The position numbers and the translations under genes were made by a program. From positions 1-25,023 of the IMG/VR virus record IMGVR_UViG_3300024513_000080: a stretch of DNA of 25,023 nt; one strand, 5' to 3'. Origin of the DNA: a virus (lineage: Duplodnaviria; Caudoviricetes). Below are positions 6,298 to 25,022 of the stretch, one piece after another; positions within the stretch are counted from its first letter, which is position 1; every line of letters starts with the position of its first letter. The notes under the pieces are model-generated. The model worked only from the letters and a program-made list of their open reading frames with translations, did no database searches and had not been told where the DNA came from.

Positions 6298-7340
6298 TGT
6301 TTGCCAAACTTGTTACCCCTACTGGACTCAACGCCTGCGCTGCCTTCCGCGACATTGCGCGGCTACTGACGTCGCAATCGCCTTCACTGAGTCTGTTGAG
6401 CGGATTCAGTCAATCGACCTCCGTCATTTACGACGCCGCCCCGGCTGGTTGGACGTATGTCGGGGGTTCGTATGCCGCTGATCAACCAACCATCTACAAC
6501 GGCTCATTAGCTGGCTTTACTACGACCGCCGACGTCGTGTGGCGCTTGTGCTTAAGCGCGCCATGTCTTGCGACGACCAAGCTGAAGTACGCAGTGCTCA
6601 CTCAAGAGATTGGCCTCGCTCAGGCGTCCAATGGCACGACAGCCGTATATGGCTGCTTGACCGGCGCGACGAACGCGACCTCGACAGGCGTGGTGACAAA
6701 CGAGGGGCCAAGGTACTTTCACTCTTCAACAGATGGCGTGACGGAGGGGGAGCCTACCGCCCTTGGGTTCACCGCCAACTCCACGACCTACGTGATTGCC
6801 GATCAACGGCATATCACCATCATCCAAGAGGGTCGCGGGTTTTCTGCGCTATGGGAGCATCAGGCGTCTCCACTCCACCTGTACTCAGACACTGTTCCGA
6901 TGGTTCAGTATTCGCACAATCGCTCAGACATATTCACAAGAGCGAATATCATTGTTCCCACAAACAGCTCCGCGGTCATATCCAACACCATCCTCGCGGC
7001 GACATTTAACTCGTACCGCACAAGCGACGCCAACATTGCGGGAACATACGACTTTACCGAGAACATGACTCGGAATCTCGGCAACTTCATTCAGAATGCG
7101 TCAACGCTGCGATCAACAACGATTGATCAGTCTGGATTCCCCGTCTACCAAGTGTCGCCCGTGTGGTTCCAGACCGGAGCACGAGGGCATCCCGTCGTGT
7201 TTGTGACCGGCGTTGTGCCTGTCTATTTCACCGCACCCAGCATTGGAACCACTCTAGACGTCGTATCGATCAGTGGTCAGCAGTATCGCTGGTTCAACTG
7301 TGGCGCCGGCTTTGGAATGGCCTTTCTGACTGGAACCTGA
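6297..7340 (+). CDS. Putative virion structural / receptor-binding protein
   Basis: 347 aa; T/S/G/aromatic-rich beta protein; coupled start; C-terminus LDVVSISGQQYRWF resembles that of other phage appendage proteins (recall only). Confidence 0.6.
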   Translation: MFAKLVTPTGLNACAAFRDIARLLTSQSPSLSLLSGFSQSTSVIYDAAPAGWTYVGGSYAADQPTIYNGSLAGFTTTADVVWRLCLSAPCLATTKLKYAVLTQEIGLAQASNGTTAVYGCLTGATNATSTGVVTNEGPRYFHSSTDGVTEGEPTALGFTANSTTYVIADQRHITIIQEGRGFSALWEHQASPLHLYSDTVPMVQYSHNRSDIFTRANIIVPTNSSAVISNTILAATFNSYRTSDANIAGTYDFTENMTRNLGNFIQNASTLRSTTIDQSGFPVYQVSPVWFQTGARGHPVVFVTGVVPVYFTAPSIGTTLDVVSISGQQYRWFNCGAGFGMAFLTGT

Positions 7341-7342
7341 TC

Positions 7343-8302
7343 ATGCCATCTCACAACGAACTGGTCTCCGCAGTCGCGGCTACAAGCCCGCTTCTGTACT
7401 ACCCGATGTCTACTGCGGGTCAGGGCGCTGTTTCCAGTATCAGCTTTGCGAGCCAGGGGTCTGTGACCGGGGTGGCCGCAACCATGAACTCGACAGTGGT
7501 TTCGGGTTCAATGTCGGCCAGCGGTACGTTGATTCCGGGTGATGCTCAACAGTACCTGACGATCGGTAGTGCGAGTTCGGTCAGGCTTGTGACAGACATC
7601 ATTGGGACAGTGCTCGGAGTTCCGCTATCAAATCTCACGATGCAGATCATTGTGAGACCAGCCGACGGAAGCGGGACGCCAGACTCTTTTTGGGGCTGGC
7701 CCATCCTGCATCTTGGCAAGAGTGGTACAGGCTCAGCCGACAACTACCAATTTACATACGGTATGTTGTCTGACTTCTCCCAGAAGTTCGTGTGGGAGTA
7801 CACGACTTCAGCGACAGACCAGATTGTTTCTGGCGGCTACTTTGGCTCGAACTTCGCAATGCCAAGCCCCATCGCAAAGACACTTCATTTCATCATCACA
7901 AGAGACGCCACGACTAAGCAGATCACAATCTACTTCAACGGTGCGCTCGACGAGCAGATCTCCTACGCAAACGACGCAACCCACGGCAGTAATGCAAAGT
8001 TTTCCGTCATCGGTGTTGACGCCGGATCAGTCAATAGCTTGGCTGGCACGTACGGACACGCAGCTCTCTGGGGCAGAGTGCTTAGCATGTCCGAGATCGC
8101 CTCATTGTTTACGGCATCTGGAATCTACTTCACCGCTCCATCAGCAGACAGGCTGTCTCTGTTGCCAGTGGACGCACAGATTCCGCTTGCGCAACTTAGC
8201 GATCTCCTGTCCCCTATCGCTAACAAGTCTATTGAGATTTACGTTGACGGAACGATCGATACCGGCTCGCTTGATCCGGCGAACGAGTACTACTGGTCAT
8301 AG
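7343..8302 (+). CDS. LamG/concanavalin A-like lectin-domain virion protein
   Basis: True start is likely the ATG at 7343 (MPSHNELVSAV), 2 nt after the upstream stop. Motifs PLLYYPM, LHFIITRD....ITIYFNGAL and HAALWGRVLSMSEIASLF are characteristic of Laminin_G_3 domains. Confidence 0.75.
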   Translation: MPSHNELVSAVAATSPLLYYPMSTAGQGAVSSISFASQGSVTGVAATMNSTVVSGSMSASGTLIPGDAQQYLTIGSASSVRLVTDIIGTVLGVPLSNLTMQIIVRPADGSGTPDSFWGWPILHLGKSGTGSADNYQFTYGMLSDFSQKFVWEYTTSATDQIVSGGYFGSNFAMPSPIAKTLHFIITRDATTKQITIYFNGALDEQISYANDATHGSNAKFSVIGVDAGSVNSLAGTYGHAALWGRVLSMSEIASLFTASGIYFTAPSADRLSLLPVDAQIPLAQLSDLLSPIANKSIEIYVDGTIDTGSLDPANEYYWS

Positions 8303-8310
8303 GTGTTGAA

Positions 8311-8676
8311 ATGATTGGCGAATTGATTGCTCTACTCTTCCTGTCAAGAGACGTTGCTCATCGGGAACACCTGAAGGTGACCGGGCCGGGTAGCTACGCC
8401 GCGCATATCGCCCTCGGCAGCTTCTACGACGAGGTGGTTGATCTGGCGGACTCCCTGGCCGAGGCCTACCAGGGGCGCAACGGCATCATCGAAGACATCC
8501 CGTATCTGGACGCTGACAAGGGGGAAGTCATCCCCGTCCTGGAGCAGCACCTCAAGTGGGTCGAAGACAATCGATTCGAAGCCGTCCCCAAAGAGGACAC
8601 GGCCCTTCAGAACATCATCGATGAGATCGTGGGTCTGTACCTGTCCACGCTCTACAAGCTGAAGAACCTGAAGTGA
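8311..8676 (+). CDS. Ferritin/Dps-like four-helix protein (DUF5856-like)
   Basis: 121 aa; SD AGGTG; motifs AHREHL, SYAAHIALGSFYDEVVDLADSLAEAYQG and LQNIIDEI....STLYKL match the phage DUF5856 pattern (recall). Confidence 0.75.
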   Translation: MIGELIALLFLSRDVAHREHLKVTGPGSYAAHIALGSFYDEVVDLADSLAEAYQGRNGIIEDIPYLDADKGEVIPVLEQHLKWVEDNRFEAVPKEDTALQNIIDEIVGLYLSTLYKLKNLK

Positions 8677-8971: not shown

Positions 8972-9456
8972 TGGATCCGATCACCGCCTTCACCGTCGCG
9001 AGCACTGCGTTCGCCACCGTCAAGAAGATGGTGGCTGCTGGCCGTGAGGTGCAGGACGTCGCTGGTCAGATCGGCAAATGGTTCGGAGCCGTCACCGAGT
9101 TCAACCGCTCGGTCAACGTCCAGGCCAACAAGAAGCCGTCGATCTTCAAGCGAGTCCTGGACCAGGGGAGCATCGAGCAGCAGGCGCTCGAGATGACGAT
9201 GCGTCGTCAGGCGATCCGCAAGCAGGAGTACGAACTCAAGATCCTCATCATCGCCAAGTACGGCGAGAACGTCTACAACGAGATGATGATGGATCGCATT
9301 CGGCTTCGGAAGGAGCAGGAGAAACGCGAGCGAGAACACGCCAAGCGCAGGGAAGACTTCCGGCTGAACGTGCTCTACGGCTCCGCCATTGCGGTGATGT
9401 CCGCCGCTGTGATCTGGCTCACGGTGTTCCTGTTCGACTATGCACAGAAGAAATGA
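8971..9456 (+). CDS. Membrane-anchored coiled-coil protein
   Basis: Likely start is the GTG at 8971, overlapping the upstream TAG (MDPITAFTVASTAFATVKK); charged helix followed by a C-terminal TM (AIAVMSAAVIWLTVFLF); 161 aa. Confidence 0.7.
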   Translation: MDPITAFTVASTAFATVKKMVAAGREVQDVAGQIGKWFGAVTEFNRSVNVQANKKPSIFKRVLDQGSIEQQALEMTMRRQAIRKQEYELKILIIAKYGENVYNEMMMDRIRLRKEQEKREREHAKRREDFRLNVLYGSAIAVMSAAVIWLTVFLFDYAQKK

Positions 9457-9929
9457 TGTTCAAAGCACCACCCCCTACCGCGAGTCGGTCTGAGCGCGAG
9501 GCATACGTCAAGGGTCTTGCCGCATTCTCCATCTCGATCTTCGCTCTACTCCTGGCTATCAACGGAATGTTCGGCAGCAGCAACTCTGGTCGCGTTCTGA
9601 ACAAGACGATCGAGGCCAACAACCTGTGGACTTGGTATGGAACAAAGAATGTTAGAGCGACGATTCATGACACGGTTGGTTCGAAGGAGGAGGTGGTCCG
9701 CCTCAAGACTGACATGGAAGAAATTCAGTCCAAAGCTCGTCAGTCCGAAGCGGATCGTGATGCGGCGAAGAACAAGTCGCCTTGGTATTCCTACGCTGGC
9801 ATGGCCCTCCAGCTATCTATTGTTCTTTCGTCGGCTGCGATCCTCGCCGTCTCGATGATCCTGTTCTATTCGTCTTTGTTGGTGGGCGGCTTTGGTGCCG
9901 TCCTGTTCTTTGTTGCACTTGGAGCATGA
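9453..9929 (+). CDS. DUF4337-like membrane protein
   Basis: Likely start is the ATG at 9453 or 9456, overlapping the upstream TGA. One TM, then ANNLWTWYGTKNVR, a coiled coil, LQLSIVLSSAAIL and further TMs: the DUF4337 pattern (recall). Confidence 0.7.
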   Translation: MMFKAPPPTASRSEREAYVKGLAAFSISIFALLLAINGMFGSSNSGRVLNKTIEANNLWTWYGTKNVRATIHDTVGSKEEVVRLKTDMEEIQSKARQSEADRDAAKNKSPWYSYAGMALQLSIVLSSAAILAVSMILFYSSLLVGGFGAVLFFVALGA

Positions 9930-11467: not shown

Positions 11468-13093
11468 ATGGCACTGATCGGAATCAAGGGCTTCAACGGC
11501 ATGAAGCCGATCTCCAACCCAATCCTCTTGGATTCGGGTGAGGCGCAGCTTGCCCGTAACGTCAAGCTGATCTCCGGTGCCATCTCTGCGCTCAAGGGCA
11601 CGACCACTCTCAAGGCCACCACCTCTGCCTCGCCGCAGACGATCTACCGCTACGGCACCAGCGCGACGGAGACCAACTACTGGCTCGAGTTCCCTGGTGA
11701 TGTGGATGTCGTGCGCTCACCGATCGTGGCCGATCAGTACGATCGCCTGTATTGGACTGACGGTGTAGCTCCTCGCTACTCGCCCAACAACCTGATCTTG
11801 TCTGGCGCGAGCTATCCGGGGGCGTCATACCTGCTGGGCATCCCGAAGCCAACGACGGCTCCCACGGTCACGGCATCTACCGCTCCGACGGAAGCTGTTC
11901 ACACCGAGAGCCGCACCTACGTCATCACGTACGTGTCCGCGTTCGGCGAAGAAGGGCCTCCGTCCAACGCCTCTGCTGTTGTCTCGATCAACAACACCCA
12001 GCCGGTCACGGTCAGCATCCCGGGCAACCCAGGTGGCAACCGCAACCTGACGCTCAAGCGGATCTACCGCTCTTCGGCTACTGGCGCTCAGGCGTACTTC
12101 CAGTTCGTGGCTGAGGTTCCGATCGCCACGACGAGCTACACCGACAGCAAGACTCAGGCAAGCCTGGGAGAAGTACTCGGCACAGAGGACTGGGTAGAGC
12201 CTCCTGCTGGCCTGAAGGGGCTGCGGATGATGGCCAACGGCGTGGCTGTTGGCTTTGTCGGCAACACCGTCTACATGTCCGAGCCGTACCTGCCTCATGC
12301 CTGGCCGCATGAGTACCCGGTGGATGCTGACATCGTGGGCCTTGGCACCTTCGGTCAGACGGTTGTGGTGCTGACCAGAACCTTCCCGTATCTGCTGCAA
12401 GGCGTGGATCCGTCGGCCATGTCCACGACCAAGATGGAGCTGCGGCAAGCCTGCGTCTCCAAGCGATCGATCGTGGAGACCGGTGACGGCGTGATGTACG
12501 CATCGCCTGATGGCCTGGTGTCGATCGGCGGCAGCGGTGTCCAGGTGGTCACCCAGAACATCCTGTCGCGGGAGCAGTGGCAAGCCTACAAGCCGGACTC
12601 GATCCTGGCCTTCCTCTACAACGGAAGGTGGCATGGGTTCTACAACACCGGCTCTGAGCGTGGCCTGCTGATCTTCGACTTCACCGGTCAGGGCGCGTAC
12701 ATGACCGTGTCAGACCTTGGGTCTGGCGGAGCTCAGCCGATCGTCTCTGGCTTCCAGGATGCGTCTACGGACACCCTGTACCTGGTGCAGGGGGCGAACA
12801 TTGTTCGCTTCGATGCCGGGACAAACCTGCCGTACCTGTGGCGCTCGAAGGTCTTCCGCGCCCCGCAGCATGTGAACTTCTCTGTGGCTCAGGTTCGAGC
12901 CTCGGCCTATCCGGTGCAGTTGAAGGTCTATGCGGATGGCGCTCTCAAGCTGACGAAGAGCGTGGCGTCAGAGGCTCATTTTCGTTTGCCAGCCGGGTTC
13001 AAGGCCCTGGACTGGTACGTGGAGATCGAGGGCACAACTGATGTGACCGAGTTCTACATGGCGACGTCTGTTGCGGAGCTGATGCAGGTATGA
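11468..13093 (+). CDS. Podoviral tail nozzle / packaged-DNA stabilisation protein
   Basis: 541 aa; motifs RTYVITYVSAFGEEGPPS, SEPYLPHAWP, QACVSKRSIV, VMYASPDGLV and YLWRSKVF resemble 933W-like phage tail hub proteins (recall); beta-propeller-like composition. Confidence 0.8.
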   Translation: MALIGIKGFNGMKPISNPILLDSGEAQLARNVKLISGAISALKGTTTLKATTSASPQTIYRYGTSATETNYWLEFPGDVDVVRSPIVADQYDRLYWTDGVAPRYSPNNLILSGASYPGASYLLGIPKPTTAPTVTASTAPTEAVHTESRTYVITYVSAFGEEGPPSNASAVVSINNTQPVTVSIPGNPGGNRNLTLKRIYRSSATGAQAYFQFVAEVPIATTSYTDSKTQASLGEVLGTEDWVEPPAGLKGLRMMANGVAVGFVGNTVYMSEPYLPHAWPHEYPVDADIVGLGTFGQTVVVLTRTFPYLLQGVDPSAMSTTKMELRQACVSKRSIVETGDGVMYASPDGLVSIGGSGVQVVTQNILSREQWQAYKPDSILAFLYNGRWHGFYNTGSERGLLIFDFTGQGAYMTVSDLGSGGAQPIVSGFQDASTDTLYLVQGANIVRFDAGTNLPYLWRSKVFRAPQHVNFSVAQVRASAYPVQLKVYADGALKLTKSVASEAHFRLPAGFKALDWYVEIEGTTDVTEFYMATSVAELMQV

Positions 13094-16008
13094 GCCGCGA
13101 GACCCAAGTACCGGCGATCCCGGCCCCATCCGACAGCAACGTCGTCCAGGCGCTTCAGGCGATCAAGAGTTCGCTTGACGTCCGAGAGGGTCGACTTGGT
13201 GATCCGCTCGATCAGTTTGTCAGCCTGCGCGAGCTGAAGGCGCTCGGTCTTGCGAAGGATGGTTCGACCACCCTAGCCCCCGTTGGCGGAACCGGCAAGC
13301 TGCCGGTCGTAGGCAATGGTGGTGGCGTCTTTGGCCCAGACCCTTACGACGAGACCACAGATCTCACAACACCTCCTGCTCCGGGCGGGCTGACGGCCAC
13401 CTCCACGTTCTCGACCATCGTCCTGGAGTGGACTGGCGCGGCGTACAGCAATCACAGCTACACAGAGGTGTGGCGCAGCGCCACCAACGTTCTTGGCTCT
13501 GCCGTCTTGATCGGCACGACTATTGGCTCGATCTTCTCTGATCCTGTCGGCAAGACGAGTCAGACGTATTACTACTGGATCCGGTTCGTCTCGATGGCGA
13601 ATGTCATTGGGCCTTACAACGCCACCAGCGGCACCGCTGCAAGCACCAGCATGATTGGTGGTCAGGATCTGTCGAACCTGATCATCACAGCCGAGAAGAT
13701 CGCCAATGGCTCAATCGACCTTGGTGGAAACAAGATCTATGGACTGCTCAAGAACGCGAACATGGAGGTCATTACTGACCCAACCAAGATCGCGGACTCA
13801 CTGATCGGAAACACCAAGCTCGTTGACCTTGCGATCACAGCAGGCAAGATTGCCAACGGAGCTATCGACCTGGGCGGCACCAAGATCACTGGTCTGTTGG
13901 CAAACGCCAACATGGCGGTGATTACGGATCCGACCAAGATTGCCGATGGCCTGATCGGCAACACCAAGTTGGCGAACCTTGCAATCACTGCTGGGAAAAT
14001 TGCCGATGGTGCGATCGACCTGAGCGGAAGCAAGATCACTGGATTGCTGGCAAACGCCAACATGGCAGTGATCAGCGATCCCACGAAGATCGCCGACTTC
14101 ATCATCAGCAACACGAAGCTGGCAGATCTGGCCGTCACGGCGGGAAAGATCGCGTCTGGCGCTGTCACGCTAACCAAGTTTGCGTCTGGCATTGAGCCAG
14201 TGACGATTGTGACCGGCGCGCTGCCGACGACCAAGAGCACAGAGACCATCGTCTTCAGCGGCAAGCTGTATCGCTGGAGTGGTACGGCGTATACCGCAGC
14301 CGTAGATACATCAGACCTCAGCGGCACCATCACGGACGCCCAGATTGCCGGGGTCAATGCAACCAAGATCGCCGGTCAGATCACGACAACGCAGATCAGC
14401 GATGACGCCATCAGCACCCCGAAGCTGGCTGCTGGGGCCATCACTGCGGCAAAGATCGCGGCAGGCACGATCCAGGCAAGCAACATTGCAGCCGGTGCAA
14501 TTACCGGCGACCGCATCGCCGCAAACACCATCACAGGCAGCAACATCGCTGCGGACACGATCACTGCGGCGCAAATTGCGGCAGGGGCCATCAGCGCATC
14601 TGAGCTTGCCGCTGGAGCTGTGACGGCTGGCAAGATCGCGGTCAACGCGATCATCGCTAATGATGGCGTGATTGCCAACGCCGCAATCACGAACGCACTG
14701 ATTGCGAATACTGCTGTTGGGACTGCTCAGATCCAGGACGCAGCCATCACGTCCGCGAAGATTGCCAGTCTGGCTGTTGGTACCGCCGCCATTCAGACTG
14801 GAGCGATCACAAATGCGTTGATTGCCAACCTTGCTGTAGGCTCCGCGCAAATCCAGGACGCGGCCATCACATCTGCGAAGATTGCCAATCTGGCTGTTGG
14901 CACGGCAGCGATTCAGACAGGCGCGATCACTACAGCTCTGATTGCCAACTTAGCCGTCGGCTCTGCACAGATTGCTGATGCGGCTATCACATCTGCGAAG
15001 ATTGCCAATCTGGCTGTTGGCAACGCGGCCATCCAGAACCTTGCGGTCACCAACTCCAAGATCGCTGACCTGGCTGCGGACAAGATCACAGCCGGAACCA
15101 TCACGGCGGCAATCGACCTTCGCTCTCCAATTGTCCGCTCGGGAGCCGTGCTTCCTGGCAATGCTGGCTTCTACCTGGGTGACTACGGCGGGGTCAATCA
15201 GTTCTACATCGGCAACGGATCGACCGGTATCAACGGTCGTTCTCTTCAGTTCGACGGCACCAACGCGATTGTGCGAGGAGGTATCTACGCCTACTTCGGC
15301 ACGATCGGCTCGATCCTGATTGACGCCAACGGCATCTCGTCATCGAACTACGTCAGCGGCCTGACCGGCTTCTCGCTGAACCAGTCTGGCGCAGCAGAGT
15401 TCAGCAACGTCACGGTTCGCGGCAGCGTCTTCTCTACCAATGGACAGATCGGCGGCATCAACATCACCGGCGGCGGACTGTCGTCGAGCAACTTTGGCGC
15501 TGGCACAGGCTGGTCAATTACCGGCACTGGCAACGCAACCTTCAACAACATCTACGCTCGTGGCGACATCGAGGCGTCAACGCTGAAGGCCAACACGGTG
15601 ATGGTCAACACCCTGAACATTCAGGGCGGATCCGTGACCGCGATGAACATTGCAAGCGGATCTTCTGGCTCCCTTTCCTTTGGAAACACAGCAAGCACGG
15701 TAGTCGCTCTTGGGCTGACGATGGCGGGCGGGTCTAGCGGCGTGACCGTGATTGTCACGCTGAATGCGATCAGCTCTGGTGGCGGCTCAACGATGGGCAT
15801 CTACATCCGGCGCAACACAGTCCTGATCTCGTCTTCTGCGGTGTCCGTGCTCGACGCTCAGACATCTTCGTTTGTCGCCACTGCATTCGATCCATCGCCG
15901 CTGGATGGCTACAACGTCTACACGGTTGACCTCGTCAACCAGGGGCCCGGGTCTGGAACATTTACCTACAGCGCGGTCTCGCTGATCGCATCCGGTGGCA
16001 AGCGATGA
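13090..16008 (+). CDS. Tail fibre / tail tip protein with tandem repeats
   Basis: 972 aa; ATGA overlap; N-terminal helical anchor, FN3-like domain (TEVWRS..YYYWIRFVS..GPYN), long 10-aa-periodic shaft, AEFSNVTVRG/ATFNNIYARG motifs and a C-terminal beta domain. Confidence 0.85.
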   Translation: MSRETQVPAIPAPSDSNVVQALQAIKSSLDVREGRLGDPLDQFVSLRELKALGLAKDGSTTLAPVGGTGKLPVVGNGGGVFGPDPYDETTDLTTPPAPGGLTATSTFSTIVLEWTGAAYSNHSYTEVWRSATNVLGSAVLIGTTIGSIFSDPVGKTSQTYYYWIRFVSMANVIGPYNATSGTAASTSMIGGQDLSNLIITAEKIANGSIDLGGNKIYGLLKNANMEVITDPTKIADSLIGNTKLVDLAITAGKIANGAIDLGGTKITGLLANANMAVITDPTKIADGLIGNTKLANLAITAGKIADGAIDLSGSKITGLLANANMAVISDPTKIADFIISNTKLADLAVTAGKIASGAVTLTKFASGIEPVTIVTGALPTTKSTETIVFSGKLYRWSGTAYTAAVDTSDLSGTITDAQIAGVNATKIAGQITTTQISDDAISTPKLAAGAITAAKIAAGTIQASNIAAGAITGDRIAANTITGSNIAADTITAAQIAAGAISASELAAGAVTAGKIAVNAIIANDGVIANAAITNALIANTAVGTAQIQDAAITSAKIASLAVGTAAIQTGAITNALIANLAVGSAQIQDAAITSAKIANLAVGTAAIQTGAITTALIANLAVGSAQIADAAITSAKIANLAVGNAAIQNLAVTNSKIADLAADKITAGTITAAIDLRSPIVRSGAVLPGNAGFYLGDYGGVNQFYIGNGSTGINGRSLQFDGTNAIVRGGIYAYFGTIGSILIDANGISSSNYVSGLTGFSLNQSGAAEFSNVTVRGSVFSTNGQIGGINITGGGLSSSNFGAGTGWSITGTGNATFNNIYARGDIEASTLKANTVMVNTLNIQGGSVTAMNIASGSSGSLSFGNTASTVVALGLTMAGGSSGVTVIVTLNAISSGGGSTMGIYIRRNTVLISSSAVSVLDAQTSSFVATAFDPSPLDGYNVYTVDLVNQGPGSGTFTYSAVSLIASGGKR
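13684..14133 (+). repeat. Three 150-bp (50-aa) tandem repeats in the tail fibre
   Basis: Units start at 13684, 13834 and 13984 (ITAxKIAxGxIDLxGxKIxGLLxNANMxVIxDPTKIAD..IxNTKLxxLA); a partial fourth starts at 14134. Confidence 0.95.
14683..15042 (+). repeat. Three 120-bp (40-aa) tandem repeats in the tail fibre
   Basis: AITxALIANxAVGxAQIxDAAITSAKIAxLAVGxAAIQ repeated three times; the DNA atcacatctgcgaagattgccaatctggctgttggca is identical near 14866 and 14986. Confidence 0.95.
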
Positions 16009-16610
16009 AATTTGCAGCGTTTTACGACGAGTCGGGCACCGTCAAATACGTTTTCGGCTTCCCAGAGGACAGCCCTCCGCCCAACGATAAGCCTTGGGTA
16101 GAGGTCAACTCACCCGTTATGGCCGACGATGGCTGTGTTCGTGACGGCGCATGGGTTGCCTACACGCCCGAGGGTGCCGCCAGAAAAGCTGTCCCACCCC
16201 TGCACCCGGCCACATGGAACCCTGGCGCCGAGCAGTGGGTGGATGCGCGAACGCCTGATGCGCTGAAGGCGGACAAGTGGGCCGAGATCAAGGCTGCTCG
16301 AGATGCAGCCGAGCATGGCGGATTCACCTGGGACGGGTCGGTGTTCGACTCTGACCCGGAGTCACAGACCAAGATCGTCGGGGCCACTCAGCTCGCCAAC
16401 ATGAACCCTGCGTCGTTCTTGATGGACTGGACGCTCAAGGACAATACCGTACGGACGCTGACAGGTGCGCAGATGATCTCGGTGGGCCAGGCCCTGGCGG
16501 TACACGTCAACGCTCAGCACGTCCTGGGCAGAACCCTTCGGCAGCAGATCGAAGCGGCCACAACTGCCGCCGAGGTCAACGCCATCCACTGGCCCGACGA
16601 CACCCCGTGA
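16005..16610 (+). CDS. Tail fibre assembly chaperone, DUF4376-like
   Basis: 201 aa; ATGA overlap with the fibre gene; motifs KWAEIKAARD...GGFTWDG..FDSDPESQ, WTLKDNT..L and IEAATTAAEVNAIHW. Confidence 0.85.
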   Translation: MKFAAFYDESGTVKYVFGFPEDSPPPNDKPWVEVNSPVMADDGCVRDGAWVAYTPEGAARKAVPPLHPATWNPGAEQWVDARTPDALKADKWAEIKAARDAAEHGGFTWDGSVFDSDPESQTKIVGATQLANMNPASFLMDWTLKDNTVRTLTGAQMISVGQALAVHVNAQHVLGRTLRQQIEAATTAAEVNAIHWPDDTP

Positions 16611-16675: not shown

Positions 16676-17122
16676 ATGCGGGACGCCAAAACGATCTCTC
16701 TGCTGCACAGGTTCTTCAGGGACGACCCTGATGCGGTGCAGCTCGCACTCATGTTGACCCGAATCGCTGACGTTTGGGATGACCTGATCGACAAGGACGC
16801 CGAGGTCACGCCGTCAGACATCAACGAAATGATGTGGCTCGCCCTGTCTGGGGTGAACCGCAACGCCTTCTTCCGCAATCACTGCTCTGAGCTTCTGCCG
16901 CTGATGGAGACCTCGATCCTCAACTGGCTGGCTTCCGACGAGCTGAAGGCGAACCACGGGCAGAAGGGTGTCGAGATCGCCAACGTGATCCGGCACAGCC
17001 TGTGTGATCTGTTTGTTCATATGGCACGAATCATCGGCGGCTTCGAGTGGGCTGTGTCGGTGACTCCTGAGATCAGGATGCTTGCACAGAACGACACACT
17101 CGAAGAGTTTTTGAAAGGGTAA
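16676..17122 (+). CDS. All-helical protein with a DDxxD motif (class I isoprenyl-transferase-like), function unknown
   Basis: 148 aa with host-like codon usage; helix ending in WDDLIDKD (16775-16798); sits directly upstream of the first ejection protein. Confidence 0.7.
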   Translation: MRDAKTISLLHRFFRDDPDAVQLALMLTRIADVWDDLIDKDAEVTPSDINEMMWLALSGVNRNAFFRNHCSELLPLMETSILNWLASDELKANHGQKGVEIANVIRHSLCDLFVHMARIIGGFEWAVSVTPEIRMLAQNDTLEEFLKG

Positions 17123-17126
17123 GACT

Positions 17127-18152
17127 ATGGGATGGATGAGCGCACCCCAGCCGGATCCGGGAATTGGCGAAGCAGCCAGGGCCAGCGCCGAGCTGGGCAA
17201 AGAAACATTCGACTTCTACAAGTCTATCTACCAGACCGACCTCAAGCCGATGCAGGAGCGCCAGCTTGCGCTCGCTGAGAGGGCGACTCAGAGCTACCTT
17301 GAAGACTCCCAGCTTGCCCGGGAAGAGGCTCGTCGCCGCATCGAGGAAGACAAGGCCAACAAAGACCTGCGCGACAAGGTCAAAGCCGATGCGATGGGCT
17401 ACGACTCTCGAGAGAACATCGAGCGTCGTCAGGGCATCGCTGCGGCCAGCGCCAACCAGCAGTTCTCGAATGCTCGAGATCAGTCGCTGCGTAGCTTGTC
17501 GCGATACGGCGTCAACCCCAACTCGTCCGCGTTTGCCCGTACCAACGAGCGGCTGACCCGTGATCAGGCCTTGGCTACGGCTGGTATGCAGACTGGTGCC
17601 GCCTTCGACACGATGGACAAGGCGATCGCATTGCGTGCCGGTGTCAACGAAGCGGCCAGTGGTCGTTCGAACACAGCCGGTCAGTACATCGGCTTGGCCG
17701 GGAATAGCCTTGGTGGTGCTGTTGGTGCCGGTAGCGGCGCTATGGCGGATGCTCGAGCCAATGCGGGCATGGTTGGTCAGGGTGCTGGATACGGCTTGCA
17801 AGGCTACAACCAGTCCGGAAACCTGTACGGCCAGGAGTTCCAGGGACGCATGGCTGGCTACAACGCCCAGATGGGCGCGATCGCTGGTTTGGCTGGAGCG
17901 GCAGGCACGTATTACGGCCTGTCCAACAGACCTCCTGGCAAGGCAGATGGTGGAGAGATTCACTCTGGGCCAGGCCACGTCAAAGGCCCCGGTGGTCCGG
18001 TGGACGACAAGGTTCCGGCGATGCTCTCGAACGGCGAGTATGTGATTCCCGCTGATGTTGTAAAGGCCAAGGGCGTCGAGTTCTTCGACAAGCTCAAGGC
18101 GAAGTACCACACCCCGGCTGCACAGCAGCGCATGGGTCTTCGGAGGAACTGA
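17127..18152 (+). CDS. Internal virion / DNA ejection (pilot) protein
   Basis: 341 aa; helical N-terminal half with LSRYGVNPNS, Gly/Ala-rich membrane-like segment, and C-terminal GG..GPG...D.VPAMLSNGEYV module; first of three genes ending in a giant protein. Confidence 0.75.
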   Translation: MGWMSAPQPDPGIGEAARASAELGKETFDFYKSIYQTDLKPMQERQLALAERATQSYLEDSQLAREEARRRIEEDKANKDLRDKVKADAMGYDSRENIERRQGIAAASANQQFSNARDQSLRSLSRYGVNPNSSAFARTNERLTRDQALATAGMQTGAAFDTMDKAIALRAGVNEAASGRSNTAGQYIGLAGNSLGGAVGAGSGAMADARANAGMVGQGAGYGLQGYNQSGNLYGQEFQGRMAGYNAQMGAIAGLAGAAGTYYGLSNRPPGKADGGEIHSGPGHVKGPGGPVDDKVPAMLSNGEYVIPADVVKAKGVEFFDKLKAKYHTPAAQQRMGLRRN

Positions 18153-19436: not shown

Positions 19437-22400
19437 ATGGCAACAGACCGACTCGGACTCAGGAACCCATACTTCTTGGACTCTGCTGAGGCCGAGCGAG
19501 GGGTTCGATCAAGGGACTCTGGCTTCTTGAGCGGCGATCTGGAGTTTGACGTCCAGGCCCCGAGCACCAGTGCGTCCGTGATGCGGGACTCGATGAACAG
19601 CGAGGTCAGCCAATCTCGACAGACTGCGCCATCAGGTCGAAGGGTCGCCCCTGGATTCATGGCTGGCGACATGGAGATCGATCCGGATTACAAGCCTCCG
19701 GTTGCTGAGCCTCAGCCGACCGCCAAGAAGGTCGCTGACGAGGACTACGGCTTCCAGCCCATCAATGCCTTGAAGAAGGGCTTCAAGGGTCTGGGTCTGA
19801 CCTGGGACTTCCTGGCCAACCGGCTTGAGAAGGCTGTCACTGGCGACACCAAGGACACCGCTCCCATCCTGGCCAAGAGCGTCGAGGAATACAACCAGAT
19901 CGCCTCTGATCCTCGCATCGGCAAGATGGTCAAGGAGGCCGACCAGAAGTACCAGGACGATGGTGTGGTAGCAGCCACCGGCTCAATGCTGGGCTGGATG
20001 GTTCGCAACCCGACGATGGTTGCCAACTTCCTGGCCGAGCAGATTCCTGGCGCTGCCGTTGGTGGCGGTATCGGTGGTGTGGCCACGGCTCCGCTCAAGA
20101 GTGCTGCTGCTGGTGCCGCAGCTCGAGCTGGCGCAAGCAAGGCCGTGCAGTCCGCTGTCGGCACTGGCGTGACCGGTGCAGGCATCAACACGTCTGCCGT
20201 GGTGTTCCAGTCCCTGGGCACGAACTACACCGAGGGCCTTCAGAAGTTCGATGGCGACACTGAGGCTGCTGCCGAGTACGCCGTCAGCAAGACTGCCGGT
20301 GAAGTACCGGCCAACGCTGTGGCTGGCGCGTTCCTGGGCATCAATCCGTTCAAGTCCAAGGTCGCCAACATCCTCAACCAGGCGAACATCCAGGGCATCG
20401 GTGGCGCTACCGGTGCCTACATGGCATCCAAGGCTGTCGGTGAGGATGCGAGCTTCGGTGAGATGGCGCTCGAGTACCTGGGCGAAGGCTTGACCGCACC
20501 CGGCGAGATCGCTGCCGTTGGCGTAGAGAAGTTCCGTGGCAAGCCGCAGGAGCAGGGGCCCAATGCCCCACCGAATCCTGTGAGCGATCGTAATGCTGGC
20601 GAGCCTCCTGCTGGCCCTGGCATGTCGCCCGTCCAGATGCAGGAGTTCGTCAACGACTCCCGCTCTGTGCCGTTCTTTGCCGCCCTGTACCAGACGGCGG
20701 ACGATGCCACCAAGACGCAGATCGAGCAGGCGATGGGCCGAAGCGATCAGCTCGAGGCATTCCAGACGGCTATCAACAACGTCCAGTCGATTGAAGATGG
20801 CAATCGCCTGGTTCAGCAGAACGGGGACTTCGCCAACTTGGTGCTTGGGTCTCTGGATCCGTTCCTGAAGACGCCGCCTCCAGCCGGTGTGTACAAATCC
20901 ACACCGCCCAGCTTGGCTCGGGCAGCTAGTGAAGATGCTTCATTCGGCTCTGACGAGAACCTCGCCTCTCTTGAAGAGGAGATCCAACGGTCTCGCGCTG
21001 TTCGAGAGTTTGAGCGAGAGCAGCCTGGTGGGCTCGTACCCAGTCAAGCCAGTAAAACCGGCGTCGAACCTGCTTCTTCAACTGAGACTCCCGCTACCGA
21101 ACCGATCGTAGCCCAGACGACAGATGGCACTCAAAACGAGCCACTGACAGTCGGCACAGCCCCCTCGATCAGCAACATCGAAGTCTCTCGCGGAGACGGT
21201 AGCTCCCTGTTCGTGCCGTCAGTGCGCTTCGAAAGTCGCGGCATGACCGCTTCGATGAGTGGCAGAGAGTTTGAGCTGCAACTAGCTGGGCCAGTTCAGC
21301 CTGGAGCTATCAGCTTCTCGTCGGTCAGGGTCACGCCAGACGCCACCTACTTTGGCGGCAGTTCTGACAGGTCAAGCAACCTGCTTGCGTGGGTTGATGG
21401 CCAGTCTATTGCCATCGAGGAACCGTCTACCTCAAAGATGGTTCGTCTCGACAGATCGTCTCCTGGCGGCTCCGCCGAGACTGCCTTGCGCAAGGCTGTC
21501 GGGGACGCGGCAGTTGATGCTTTCCTCTCCTCTGATCCATCAAATGCTCAGTCTGCGGTGTCTCAAGCCATTCTGGGCATGGACATCAATCCAGAGATCC
21601 AATCTGCGCGGAAGCTGTTTGATCGATCATTCTCTGCAACACAGGTCGCCGAGAGCGATGCGACTTCCGCCACGTCCGTGGCGCAGGACTCGTTCTCGCA
21701 ACTTCAGACAAGCCTGGAGCAGCGGGGTGCTGAGGCGGGCTCGATCAAGCGTGTCAAGAACCCTTCCCACCTGAACAAGATCGCCAAGCTGTTTGGCGTC
21801 GAGTTGTTTGCCTACAGCTACAACGGCAGCGATGCTCGCCTGAAGAAGCTTGCTGGCACCAACATCACGTCCCCGACTGGCAAGTCGATCATCGGCATCA
21901 ACGTCACCCAGTCACCCAAGGCGTCACTGTTCGTCCTTGGCCATGAGGTGTTCCACGATCTGGCCCGTCGTTTCCCGCAGCAGGCCCAGTCGCTGAGCCT
22001 TGAGATCAAGTCTTACCTCCAGGCCAACCGGTACGAGGACTACAAGAAGTTCTACGAGTCCAAGAACCAGACAGAGAAGACGGACGAAGAGGTTGCAGCC
22101 GATGTGCTCGGAACCCTGTTCACGGACAAGAAGTTCTGGGAGCAGCTTGGAGTGCGCAACCAACCTCTGCTGGCTCGCATCCTGTCGGTCATCGACAACC
22201 TGATCGCCAGCTTCAAGGCCAACGCCGACTCCGGTCGGATGCAGATCAAGCAGTTCATCACCGAGTACGAGAAGGTGAGGGACAGGGTCGCATCCTTTGT
22301 GACCGAGACCCAACAGGGCAAGCCTTCTCAGTCCCAGGTTGGGACTGCCACGGATGAGATGGCTGATCTGCCGATCGACCAGGTGCGTCAGCTCCTGGCT

Positions 22401-25022
22401 GAGAAGAGGATCAGTGATGCGGCCAAGCTGTTCAAGGCCAGCAACCTCCAAGCTCAGGGCTTCGACTTCTCGCAGGTGGCGAGGGAGGCTGGCGCACGGG
22501 TGATTGGTCGTTCTGTGGTGAAATCAGACACTGCGGAAGCCCAGGCACCGAGCGGCACTACAAGCGAATCCGACAGTGTCCGGACTGAGGGCGCGACTCA
22601 GCCTGCGGCTACCGCACCTACCATAAAGAAGGGTCCTCCCGACCGCTTCGAAAATAAGAACATCACGCTCAGCGACGAAGATCTGCGTACCGTTGAGGAC
22701 GAGGTGCGGATCGTCAAGGACTTGCTGAGAAACGCCAAGTTTGCCCAGCGAGAAAGCCTTAAGGCTAAGTTCCTCCAGGAGGCAAAAGACTCCTTCGACA
22801 AGTTTGCACTTGGCGCTCAAGGCCAGAGCTTCAACGATCTGGAGAAGCAGGTTGCAGAAGAGAAGGCTAAGAATCGCACCCCTCGGACTGAGCCGACTGC
22901 GGAGAACGTGATCCGCTCCCGTGTACGTCGCCTGATGACGGCTGCTGACAGCACGGCGGAAGATCGGGCCAAGCTCGAGCAAGAGGCCAAGAAGGCCAAG
23001 AAGGATCAGGAGAAGGCGGCCAATCAAGTCTCGAACGTCGATGACATCGAAGATCCCAATCGCTTTGCCGACACCCTCGGTGAGCGTGCGGACGATGCAA
23101 TCGGCAAGGAAGAAGGCGAGCCGAAGGCCGACAAGCGCGTATCTGACAGCATCATTGAGCAGCAGCGCAAGCTCCTGAAGCGTCGCGCCAACGAGGTTGC
23201 CAGCAACCCCGACGTGATGATGGGCGAGCTGCTCAACATCAAGTCTGAAGCCGAGAAGGCTGGGCTGTCCGCTGAGACGATCGCGGACATCTTCGACACA
23301 CCGATGGCACAGATCAAAGCTCTGGCTGACGGCTTGATGTCTGAGGTCAAGGCTGACGAGCAATTGACGGACGTCACTGACGAGACCAACGTCGAGCAGC
23401 AGCCTGCCGATGCTGGCGAGCCGATCACCAGCTATAACGCGGCGCGTAATGCCGTTCAGGCCATAACGCAGGGCGTTACTAGTGGGCGGATCACGGTTGA
23501 TGGAATCACCCGTGTGCTGCAACTGGCGCGTCGTGACGCCAACTTCTCGATCGGACAACTGATCCAGGCGATGCAGGAGGAGGGGATCGAGGTTCCATCC
23601 GTGTTCGATCGGATGAATGGCCGTCCGTTCACGCAGCCCTTTGTTGCCTTCGTATCCAGCTCACCCAACCATCCGGTGGCGCGTCAGGAGTGGTTCACCT
23701 CCCTGGATCGAGCCTTGCGTGAGTCAACCTCCGCAGAGAAAACCACCATCCTGAGTCAGCTCACCAGCGTTGAGCGCGAGCTGTACAACGACTGGAAGGC
23801 CAAGAACTCCCGCGCACCGGTAGATACCGACAGCAAGGATTTGCTCAAGGTCTTCCCGAACTCTCTGTTCACCAAGTTCAGCCTGACCCAGATGCGCAAC
23901 CCGGAGAGCATCCCGCAAGGGCAGCTCCCGCTGTCGGTTCGCTCTGGCATCGTGGACTTTGTGCAGGACTGGTATGCCGACGTCTCCAACGCTCTGACCT
24001 ACCGGCCCGACATGGCCCGTCAGATCCTTGGCGCTCTGGCTCCCCAGGATCTCAAGGCGTTCACCGCGTGGCGCAAGGCACAACAGCGGGCCACTATGAA
24101 GAAGGCCGAGGTGATCGGTCGCTCGGTTGACTACGGCAACCTGATGGGTCTGCGCTTCATCGGCCCCATGCTGACCGATGCCTACAAGCAGCAGCTCTCC
24201 CTGGCCGACCAGTTCATGGCCAAAGAGGCTGTAGCCTGGGCTGCTCGCATCGACGCACTGATTGAGCGGGTCAACCAGGATCAGAGTCTGTCGCCGCAAG
24301 ATCGCAAAAATGCGATACGGGACATCACCTACCGTGAGCTGAACCGGATCCACAAGACGATCCACAACCGCGCCAGGAAGCTGGCTGACACGACAGACAA
24401 CGCCGACTCGTTCGCCAACTGGGTTGCCGAGATGAACGAGCGCATGTCTCGTCCTGAGCAGCAGCAGGGTCGGACGGACGAAGGCGAGTTCGTGGCGATT
24501 GAGGAGCGGGCAGACGAATCGTTTGACGACATGGCGTCCCGCCTGGGTGACGCACTGTTCCGTATCGGCAACGGCGAGACTGGGTCTGTCGCATCGACGG
24601 TGCTGGTGCAGTCCCAGGTGTCCGAGATCATGGGCACCTTCAAGTCTGCTGCCAACGTCAAGGTGGTCGGCAACCCGTCGCATCTGCCTGACGGCGTGCG
24701 TGAGCGTTTGATGAAGCGTCTGACCAACGGCTACATGCCCAAGGGTCTGTACGACGCGCAGACGGGGAACATCTACATGTTCTCCGAGGCTGCTACATCT
24801 GAGCACGACACCCAGTTCACCCTGTTCCACGAGCTGTACGGCCACTTCGGTCTGCGTGCTTTCCTGGGCGACACCTACACCGACTACTTCACCTCGCTCT
24901 ACAACGGCAACAAGGCTATCCGGGAAGCAGCTAACAAGCAGAAGGAAGGCCGCAACATCTCCAACGCTGTGGCGGTTGAGGAAGCCCTCTCCGACATGGC
25001 TGGCGATGGCAAGTTCGCTGGC
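19437..25022 (+). CDS. Giant internal virion protein, polyvalent-protein-like (3' partial, >1860 aa)
   Basis: Absent from the ORF track, consistent with having no stop in the window. ATG at 19437 (MATDRLGLRNPYFL). Spot-checked segments, including 21000-21730, stay open in frame. Gly-zipper near 20050-20220; GHEVFH at 21939-21956; HELYGHFGLR from 24828. Confidence 0.85.
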   Translation, partial: MATDRLGLRNPYFLDSAEAERGVRSRDSGFLSGDLEFDVQAPSTSASVMRDSMNSEVSQSRQTAPSGRRVAPGFMAGDMEIDPDYKPPVAEPQPTAKKVADEDYGFQPINALKKGFKGLGLTWDFLANRLEKAVTGDTKDTAPILAKSVEEYNQIASDPRIGKMVKEADQKYQDDGVVAATGSMLGWMVRNPTMVANFLAEQIPGAAVGGGIGGVATAPLKSAAAGAAARAGASKAVQSAVGTGVTGAGINTSAVVFQSLGTNYTEGLQKFDGDTEAAAEYAVSKTAGEVPANAVAGAFLGINPFKSKVANILNQANIQGIGGATGAYMASKAVGEDASFGEMALEYLGEGLTAPGEIAAVGVEKFRGKPQEQGPNAPPNPVSDRNAGEPPAGPGMSPVQMQEFVNDSRSVPFFAALYQTADDATKTQIEQAMGRSDQLEAFQTAINNVQSIEDGNRLVQQNGDFANLVLGSLDPFLKTPPPAGVYKSTPPSLARAASEDASFGSDENLASLEEEIQRSRAVREFEREQPGGLVPSQASKTGVEPASSTETPATEPIVAQTTDGTQNEPLTVGTAPSISNIEVSRGDGSSLFVPSVRFESRGMTASMSGREFELQLAGPVQPGAISFSSVRVTPDATYFGGSSDRSSNLLAWVDGQSIAIEEPSTSKMVRLDRSSPGGSAETALRKAVGDAAVDAFLSSDPSNAQSAVSQAILGMDINPEIQSARKLFDRSFSATQVAESDATSATSVAQDSFSQLQTSLEQRGAEAGSIKRVKNPSHLNKIAKLFGVELFAYSYNGSDARLKKLAGTNITSPTGKSIIGINVTQSPKASLFVLGHEVFHDLARRFPQQAQSLSLEIKSYLQANRYEDYKKFYESKNQTEKTDEEVAADVLGTLFTDKKFWEQLGVRNQPLLARILSVIDNLIASFKANADSGRMQIKQFITEYEKVRDRVASFVTETQQGKPSQSQVGTATDEMADLPIDQVRQLLAEKRISDAAKLFKASNLQAQGFDFSQVAREAGARVIGRSVVKSDTAEAQAPSGTTSESDSVRTEGATQPAATAPTIKKGPPDRFENKNITLSDEDLRTVEDEVRIVKDLLRNAKFAQRESLKAKFLQEAKDSFDKFALGAQGQSFNDLEKQVAEEKAKNRTPRTEPTAENVIRSRVRRLMTAADSTAEDRAKLEQEAKKAKKDQEKAANQVSNVDDIEDPNRFADTLGERADDAIGKEEGEPKADKRVSDSIIEQQRKLLKRRANEVASNPDVMMGELLNIKSEAEKAGLSAETIADIFDTPMAQIKALADGLMSEVKADEQLTDVTDETNVEQQPADAGEPITSYNAARNAVQAITQGVTSGRITVDGITRVLQLARRDANFSIGQLIQAMQEEGIEVPSVFDRMNGRPFTQPFVAFVSSSPNHPVARQEWFTSLDRALRESTSAEKTTILSQLTSVERELYNDWKAKNSRAPVDTDSKDLLKVFPNSLFTKFSLTQMRNPESIPQGQLPLSVRSGIVDFVQDWYADVSNALTYRPDMARQILGALAPQDLKAFTAWRKAQQRATMKKAEVIGRSVDYGNLMGLRFIGPMLTDAYKQQLSLADQFMAKEAVAWAARIDALIERVNQDQSLSPQDRKNAIRDITYRELNRIHKTIHNRARKLADTTDNADSFANWVAEMNERMSRPEQQQGRTDEGEFVAIEERADESFDDMASRLGDALFRIGNGETGSVASTVLVQSQVSEIMGTFKSAANVKVVGNPSHLPDGVRERLMKRLTNGYMPKGLYDAQTGNIYMFSEAATSEHDTQFTLFHELYGHFGLRAFLGDTYTDYFTSLYNGNKAIREAANKQKEGRNISNAVAVEEALSDMAGDGKFAG

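Follow-up and report, generated by a model that had tools for sequence, protein, structure and literature searches.

A half-size isoprenoid-synthase-like protein encoded before the first podoviral ejection protein as a candidate modifier of its N-terminus

The closest described systems to the gene considered here are the peptide prenyltransferases of the ComQ type. In the ComQ homologue StheQ, three aspartates of the first Asp-rich motif (D85, D89 and D91) bind Mg, K174 lies near the diphosphate and, in the passages of the source covered, the second motif is without metal (bioRxiv 2026.08.29.745113). In all characterised peptide prenyltransferases that resemble the trans type of isoprenyl diphosphate synthase, the second Asp-rich region recognises Trp, and PalQ geranylates an N-terminal Trp (PMC13290415; like the other papers cited, covered in part). 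Here we describe a phage gene for a 148-aa protein of similar predicted fold and half the length, termed half-synthase below, in a 25,023-nucleotide stretch of DNA (IMG/VR record IMGVR_UViG_3300024513_000080; hereafter the window), a 25-kb linear virus record that is 44% complete. The gene lies directly before that of the first ejection (pilot-type) protein, and touches the question of how a short-tailed phage gets this protein through the outer membrane and what role the small gene ahead of it plays. In T7, the first ejected protein, gp14, inserts in the outer membrane (PMC8954989); we find it to start MCW.

The main observation, new here, is that the starting residues of the pilot change with the gene in this slot: Lys accompanies one GNAT family, Cys a second, and half-synthase is rarely found with Lys. 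We propose, at a little short of an even chance, that half-synthase attaches a prenyl group to the first ejection protein at its mature N-terminus, an activity that is predicted.

Predicted fold and conserved residues

As the earlier note had described, the open reading frame (ORF) at 16676-17122 encodes a helical protein with a DDxxD motif. It carries IADVWDDLIDKD, and its AlphaFold2 model (predicted local distance difference test score, pLDDT, 93.9) consists of helices throughout, with the motif ending helix 18-39 and a break at R106. A VIA structural search of 48,161 chains returned isoprenoid-synthase folds in all of its top 22 rows (rmsd 3.2-4.0), the alignments spanning nearly the whole half-synthase model against the N-terminal part of the synthases, with Z 7-9.5 over 131-147 residues. 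The best match, 5h9d_D, reached Z 9.5 (rmsd 3.4, 138 aligned residues), which falls in the range below about 13 where a score may reflect a common arrangement in helical proteins; the first unrelated row stood at Z 6.8 over 82 aligned residues. All 16 of the Foldseek rows listed with TMq >=0.5 were trans-prenyltransferases, and the model of a homologue of 30% identity gave the same fold match. At the level of a lead only, DUF2600, polyprenyl_synt and HEPPP_synt_1 were among the four nearest named clusters in the ESM Atlas (0.77-0.78). On the strength of these models, the half-synthase fold is likely related to that of class I isoprenoid synthases in their N-terminal half, in keeping with the earlier proposal of such a fold at half size.

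The half-synthase profile gathers 1,675 clusters (50% identity). Searches of Pfam, NCBIfam and PDB sequences gave no match to the protein, its sole named family being phrog_21390 of unknown function, and none of 84 family members scanned matched Pfam. A single cultured phage among 50,697 records, Achromobacter phage CF418P1, carries the gene, and its pilot begins with MGCMS.

Since a DDxxD motif is present in 7.5% of 20,000 shuffles of the half-synthase protein, the motif alone is weak evidence, and its conservation is therefore required for it to count. The loci picked by motif-pattern searches (the best 80 of 186 viral and the best 80 of 542 metagenomic matches) had been chosen on the motif, and conservation was accordingly judged from the protein-search, alignment and profile-found sets instead; five pattern-picked loci (L011-L015) were dropped as false matches within a tape-measure-like ORF. 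Among 233 homologues from protein searches, 222 have WDDxxD, eight WDNxxD, one FDDxxD and two IDDLID or HDDLID. A 150-row alignment of 30% mean identity shows no variation at A20, D35, D39 and G122, while conservation reaches 90% at W34, D36, L37, D41, P61, N63, F65, P75, W84, R106 and G121. Seven prophage copies, found by profile with no motif filter, have W34 replaced and retain both the DDxxD and the Arg. The conservation of the motif, first noted in a single protein, is thus not a matter of chance.

The slot before the first ejection protein

At 68 distinct loci the gene after half-synthase lies on the same strand and abuts it. The products of 49 of these 68 genes match an ejection or virion-structural PHROG, one matches only a PHROG of unknown function and 18 have no match, so that the linkage to ejection genes suggested earlier extends well beyond the window. 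There, the stop of half-synthase at 17122 and the next ATG at 17127 leave the gap of 4 nt that had been reported before the MGWMSAP protein, which is a phrog_8003-type pilot and an orthologue of Bcep22 gp70 and GP4 gp71. In two Desulfovibrio prophages (L146, L149), half-synthase adjoins portal (head-tail connector) genes and does not directly precede a typical pilot.

With the window pilot as query, tblastn gave matches of about 30% identity in 56 phage records, which belong to Bcep22-, GP4- and related types. In all seven of those opened, the slot holds a RimL-type GNAT (GNAT-A, phrog_4470), annotated in five and found by profile in two, once with a small gene in between. When loci were chosen only by their pilot (73 distinct ones, reduced from the best 80 of 212), the slot is taken by GNAT-A in 42, by a second GNAT family (GNAT-B; phrog_1249, Pfam Acetyltransf_1) in 23, by half-synthase in five and by none of the three in three. 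These alternatives confirm the earlier placement of half-synthase in a GNAT slot. No locus holds GNAT-A and half-synthase together (229 and 87 ORFs, flanks of 2.5-6 kb). However, a third GNAT-like family co-occurs with half-synthase, being fused to it in P0205 (270 aa, a single-member cluster on one short contig), directly upstream in L078 and weakly detected in L090. Mutual exclusion, a question raised earlier, therefore stands for the RimL-type enzyme (no shared loci) and fails for GNAT-like genes at large; strict exclusion of every GNAT is ruled out by P0205 and L078, and weakly by L090.

P22 gene 14 and T7 gene 13 hold the same position before the first ejection protein. The GNAT-A profile gives P22 gp14 a weak 12 bits and T7 gp13 no score; T7 gp13, which we take to have a GNAT fold, is labelled a probable scaffold protein in Pfam, and P22 gp14 is labelled head morphogenesis in RefSeq. 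In phage JC1, the pilot orthologue gp64 is virion-associated, and the GNAT, not marked so in the passages covered, is called a moron of unknown role (PMC9144972).

The start of the pilot was compared with the slot gene for those phrog_8003-type pilots in which an anchor motif could be located (126 distinct ones; the rest were dropped), the 14 residues before the anchor being classed by pattern. Of 75 pilots with GNAT-A, 69 have an early Lys; five of the remaining six, when inspected by eye, do contain the Lys and were missed through a wrong anchor or a non-ATG start, leaving L405 as the true exception. All 19 pilots with GNAT-B start with Cys. With half-synthase, one pilot in 31 has an early Lys (L010), and the starts are M-(A)-G-W (10 pilots), M-(G)-C or leader-C, or a leader followed by L/F/I-D-L/M/F-G-G. 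On a pilot tree built from the anchor onward, with the N-terminus excluded, the slot-enzyme label changes nine times, and half-synthase pilots starting MCC (L142/L333, L384) nest within GNAT-A clades. The pairing of phrog_4470 with early Lys and of phrog_1249 with Cys (L165-L251, L332-L411) also yields a substrate prediction for the Bcep22 gp69-type 'moron' acetyltransferases.

Pilot starts are likewise patterned within the half-synthase family. In an enzyme tree of 191 rows (FastTree, 146 columns), all 45 phage pilots of one group (support 80) have a Cys no later than residue 33 (counted by hand), compared with 20 of 116 outside it, and the pilots of this group belong to three families, some having a leader and some not. 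Its sister (support 95) has Trp in 6/6 pilots, and in the enzyme subclade of the window (support 99) all eight pilots start M-(A)-G-W, some being only about 30% identical. Family-wide, the 164 non-RTX downstream genes divide into M-(G/A/S)-W (13), early Cys (32), M-P (24), leader plus hydrophobic residue plus Gly-Gly (41) and other starts (54). Of 161 downstream proteins, only 15 have a Trp by residue four, and the pilots of seven Halomonadaceae prophages begin M-S-(F)-G-G and so lack Trp as well as Cys. Trp3 is thereby ruled out as a family-wide acceptor, and a ComQ-like Trp rule fails because Trp is so rare. Of the covariation with an N-terminal Trp or Cys asked about in the earlier note, the tracking of pilot start by slot gene holds, whereas Trp3 is no rule of the family.

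Many pilots (L033, L042, L057, L090, L092, L151, L165, L168 and others) have a leader of 15-60 aa that ends in an aromatic motif (RLY, ICF, LMF) before a Gly-rich start, and in L074, L090 and L093 a similar leader also begins an upstream gene. We infer cleavage sites in these leaders, which resemble the 20-residue leader of P22 gp7; the latter is removed by the host enzyme OpdA and is nearly dispensable (PMC8402733). A leader-peptidase role for half-synthase was set aside because many pilots have no leader and because it is host OpdA that cuts the P22 leader.

Gene fusions involving half-synthase were also found. A S-adenosylmethionine (SAM) methyltransferase is fused to it in six scanned homologues, in both orders (P0084-P0086, P0126, P0139, P0168); in L121 (4845-5519) a free-standing relative is encoded immediately upstream, and in L151 (7273-8616) the methyltransferase follows the pilot, fused to a PAPS-reductase-like domain that also occurs after the pilot in Bcep22 and GP4. 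A short N-terminal extension is common to GNAT-B and four half-synthase homologues (E <4e-4; none with the reversed control). The fusions and the GNAT-B-like extension tie the half-synthase family to tailoring enzymes. Directly or nearly upstream of half-synthase, fatty-acid-desaturase-like (L021:4236-4958, L007, L009), sulfotransferase-like (L050:4468-4974, L056:4481-4996) and AdoMet-decarboxylase (L030:4435-4941) genes were seen.

Proposed prenylation of the pilot and its alternatives

In the proposed reaction, half-synthase would use Mg and a host prenyl diphosphate, and would tag the pilot in the cytoplasm before it is packed into the procapsid. The DDxxD and R106 would bind the Mg-diphosphate in the manner of the first Asp-rich motif of ComQ-type enzymes, the missing second half being replaced by the substrate peptide or by a second subunit. 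From their order and spacing, we infer that D35, D39, D41 and R106 may be the counterparts of D85, D89, D91 and K174 of StheQ; since only the first motif of StheQ binds Mg in the passages covered, one motif may hold the donor. Removal of the N-terminal Met is expected. Because the pilot starts are diverse, the acceptor of the family would have to be the alpha-amine or a side chain specific to each subclade, here Trp and in another group Cys, and in the window phage Trp3 is a fair candidate acceptor. The isoprenoid tag would then aid entry of the pilot into the host outer membrane. A wider model, in which podoviruses carry an interchangeable N-terminal lipidation cassette (a RimL-type GNAT for Lys starts, a second GNAT for Cys starts and a half-domain prenyltransferase for Trp, Cys or the alpha-amine after leader removal), is rather less likely than not and is offered tentatively.

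Several results weigh against prenylation of the pilot by half-synthase. Besides the low range in which the best VIA score falls, Foldseek gave no match at E <0.001 for the half-synthase model, and profile-profile comparison by hhalign with 11 polyprenyl synthases gave probabilities of 0.8-7%; a weak local profile alignment sets the Asp-rich motif on either synthase motif. The best structural match, 5h9d_D, is a 188-residue chain of heptaprenyl diphosphate synthase, presumably from its length the small subunit, which we take to be non-catalytic. The half-synthase chain ends before the Trp-recognising second Asp-rich region (pseudo-SARM), which is hence absent. The acceptors implied are diverse, namely Trp, Cys, Leu/Phe/Met after a leader, Pro (24/164) and plain Ser-Gly. 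On supported branches, only four independent pairs support the covariation, none reversed (p 0.125), and the Cys group has a FastTree support of 80 on 146 columns. The full-length adhesin encoded in L137 is without Cys, though the bacterial copies nest in the Cys group. Finally, mature P22 gp7 was sequenced as Lys-Gly-Gly-Lys-Gly (PMC8402733), so that in P22 the N-terminus was not wholly blocked, and at least in part carried no modification, although a slot gene (gene 14) precedes it.

The alternative that best withstands the evidence, unlikely as we hold it to be, is that half-synthase and the GNAT-fold proteins are non-catalytic, interchangeable chaperones that grip the pilot N-terminus, load the procapsid or keep the pilot soluble, the Asp motif binding only a metal or a basic partner. 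Such adaptors would explain the covariation and the diverse N-termini with no new chemistry, and they agree with the small-subunit size of the best fold match, with the P22 gp7 N-terminus being readable by sequencing (PMC8402733) and with the scaffold and head-morphogenesis labels of T7 gp13 and P22 gp14. However, with a mean identity of about 30%, the invariant D35 and D39 and near-invariant D36, D41 and R106 resemble an active site, the methyltransferase fusions speak for an enzyme, and it is less economical to suppose that two unrelated enzyme folds converged on one slot to serve as binders only.

In a narrow form of the earlier proposal, prenylation might instead be ComQ-like, confined to the Trp3 indole and carried out by a dimer that rebuilds the two-motif site. 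This special case of pilot prenylation, which could hold for the window subclade only, is in our view distinctly doubtful. It draws on the M-(A)-G-W starts of all eight subclade pilots despite their low identity, on the second Trp group (6/6), on the geranylation of an N-terminal Trp by PalQ and on a natural tandem gene with two motifs (P0087, 315 aa); it is opposed by the scarcity of Trp among downstream proteins (15/161) and by the absent pseudo-SARM. P0087 is itself a single-member cluster on one short contig, and its model (predicted template-modelling score, pTM, 0.53; alignment depth for one half only) aligns to synthases only over residues 148-315, the second copy, and does not superpose on a complete synthase. 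An adjacent pair in L280 was not counted as a heterodimer because it is a truncated near-duplicate.

It is improbable, too, that half-synthase acts on the pilot N-terminus with another diphosphate-releasing donor, such as a nucleotide, phosphoribosyl pyrophosphate (PRPP) or the product of the neighbouring methyltransferase or PAPS-reductase-like genes. In its favour are the retention of what is evidently the Mg-diphosphate-binding half alone, the occurrence, within this cassette or next to it, of methyltransferase genes and of genes resembling those for PAPS reductase, sulfotransferase and desaturase, and the lack of a sequence-level link to prenyltransferases. Against it, each of the 22 top-ranking fold matches is a prenyl-diphosphate enzyme or a subunit of one, and farnesyl diphosphate (FPP) is available in every host, PF00348 being present in 5/5 host-type genomes and 14/14 controls. 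Least probable by far is a mimic of the small subunit that would attach to the host's own polyprenyl diphosphate synthase, or else produce a small isoprenoid, its position being incidental and its role unrelated to ejection proteins: the top two VIA matches, both chains of heterodimeric heptaprenyl diphosphate synthases, and the chromosomal copies outside prophages would suit it, whereas the tight coupling to the pilot gene in phages, the replacement by GNATs in the same slot and the covariation with the pilot start do not.

Genomic setting and comparison with known systems

We assign the window to a podovirus by its sequence matches, namely those to SU10-adaptor and GP4-type Pfam families and those of the pilot to Bcep22- and GP4-like phages. 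Upstream of the slot lie adaptor genes, a lysis block, the phrog_511 gene, the tail fibre and the DUF4376 gene (Table 1). The 425-aa second ejection-like protein matches no Pfam, PHROG or NCBIfam family, and no PF00348 large-subunit gene was found in the 25-kb record, which is 44% complete. The C-terminal part of the pilot (window 17960-18152) is a GPGGPxDDxVPAMLSNGE domain common to tape-measure proteins, in place of which its relatives have an intramolecular-chaperone-type tail. Between the tail and lysis genes, the window has a DUF5856 gene (ferritin/Dps-like PHROG; 8311-8676), a DUF4337 gene (9078-9929) and a LamG-domain gene (7163-8302).

Table 1. Coordinates of half-synthase, the pilot and neighbouring features in the window
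Feature	Position	Strand	Basis or remark
Half-size isoprenoid-synthase-fold protein (half-synthase), 148 aa	16676..17122	+	ORF, ATG start; phrog_21390 (unknown function) E 6e-24; predicted model
Asp-rich motif W34-D35-D36-L-I-D39-K-D41, end of helix 18-39	16775..16798	+	Putative equivalent of the first Asp-rich motif (FARM), from conservation and helix limits
R106, near-invariant, break between helices 95-105 and 110-137	16991..16993	+	Putative diphosphate-binding basic residue
First ejection/pilot-type virion protein, 341 aa, start MGWMSAP; proposed substrate	17127..18152	+	phrog_8003 'virion structural protein' E 4e-37
Gly2-Trp3 codons of the pilot; candidate acceptor (alpha-amine or indole), predicted mature N-terminus	17130..17135	+	Sequence
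Second ejection-like protein, 425 aa	18154..19431	+	Same position as the 'virion structural protein' slot of Bcep22/GP4 relatives
Giant third ejection-like protein, >1862 aa, open at window end	19437..25022	+	DarB-like gene position in relatives; weak PHROG match only
DUF4376 tail-associated protein, directly upstream of half-synthase	16005..16610	+	Pfam E 4e-27
phrog_511 protein	11468-13093	+	PHROG match; module preceding the GNAT slot in relatives (synteny)
Tail fibre	13090-16008	+	PHROG match; module preceding the GNAT slot in relatives (synteny)

Half-synthase is also found in bacteria outside prophages. By our reading of 57 bacterial genome loci, 20 have it within a Lap operon, where it follows an RTX/VWA adhesin or adjoins LapG and LapD (Lap-operon loci: L098, L103, L104, L107-L109, L111-L115, L122-L124, L130, L137-L140, L147, L412, L413). 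These copies occur in Halomonadaceae and Alcaligenaceae, and their 26 rows in the tree are nested within the Cys group, surrounded by phage copies (support 97). Because of this nesting, the tree, the root of which is not set, suggests that the Lap-operon half-synthase was captured from phage. Nine of 121 Halomonadaceae genomes sampled have the gene, two in Lap operons and seven in prophages. No small ORF starting with Cys was seen right after eight Lap-operon copies.

If prenylation is borne out, it would be the first phage-encoded protein prenylation and a new kind of viral protein modification. No account of the half-synthase family or of lipidated ejection proteins was found in a literature search that left subscription journals mostly outside its coverage and excluded supplements, and lipidation or prenylation of ejection proteins would thus be an unreported kind of phage protein modification in the literature searched. 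The words acetyl, acyl, lipid and modification do not occur in the passages covered of bioRxiv 2026.05.18.726046. If true, the proposal would also provide a catalytic isoprenoid-synthase unit smaller than any other, a protein prenyltransferase of 150 residues that could serve in labelling, a function for the slot of P22 gp14 and T7 gp13, and an enzyme captured by bacteria for LapA-type adhesin operons. According to one idea, the isoprenoid-synthase fold arose from a half-domain, of which half-synthase would then be a living model. Even with other chemistry, both a family of 1,675 clusters and phage GNATs filed as morons gain a substrate assignment from the covariation, and the match of three slot genes to three kinds of pilot N-terminus is a directly testable pairing.

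Among known systems, HlyC-type dedicated acyltransferases lipidate RTX proteins encoded alongside them. They resemble half-synthase as the gene of a small lipidating enzyme next to that of an exported protein, since chromosomal half-synthase copies stand next to RTX/VWA LapA-type adhesins; they differ in fold, and here it is the half-synthase gene that follows the adhesin. The other genes of the slot, encoding the Bcep22 gp69-type RimL GNAT, the phrog_1249 GNAT, P22 gp14 (DUF2824) and T7 gp13 (PF11090), are like half-synthase in position and size; the fold of the slot GNATs is unrelated, and in the passages covered the slot genes are likewise without an assigned substrate.

Trans-isoprenyl diphosphate synthases (PF00348) are about 300 aa long with two facing Asp-rich motifs and an Arg loop after the first, whereas half-synthase has 148 aa and one motif, with no RRG loop there. 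The small subunit of heptaprenyl diphosphate synthase (PF07307) is alike in fold, but no PF07307 match was obtained among the 84 family members. With ComQ, StheQ, PalQ and ChrPC (IPR033965 and kin), half-synthase shares the predicted fold, the first Asp-rich motif with an Asp two residues on and a gene next to that of the putative substrate. In contrast to these enzymes it is phage-encoded, is half as long and has no pseudo-SARM or Trp-recognising Gln/Asn region; Trp is not general in its putative substrates, which are virion proteins of 200-1000 aa, and prenyl transfer is predicted only. Taken together, these comparisons place half-synthase outside both the ComQ and the polyprenyl synthase families and suggest, by analogy, an enzyme that plausibly works like ComQ.

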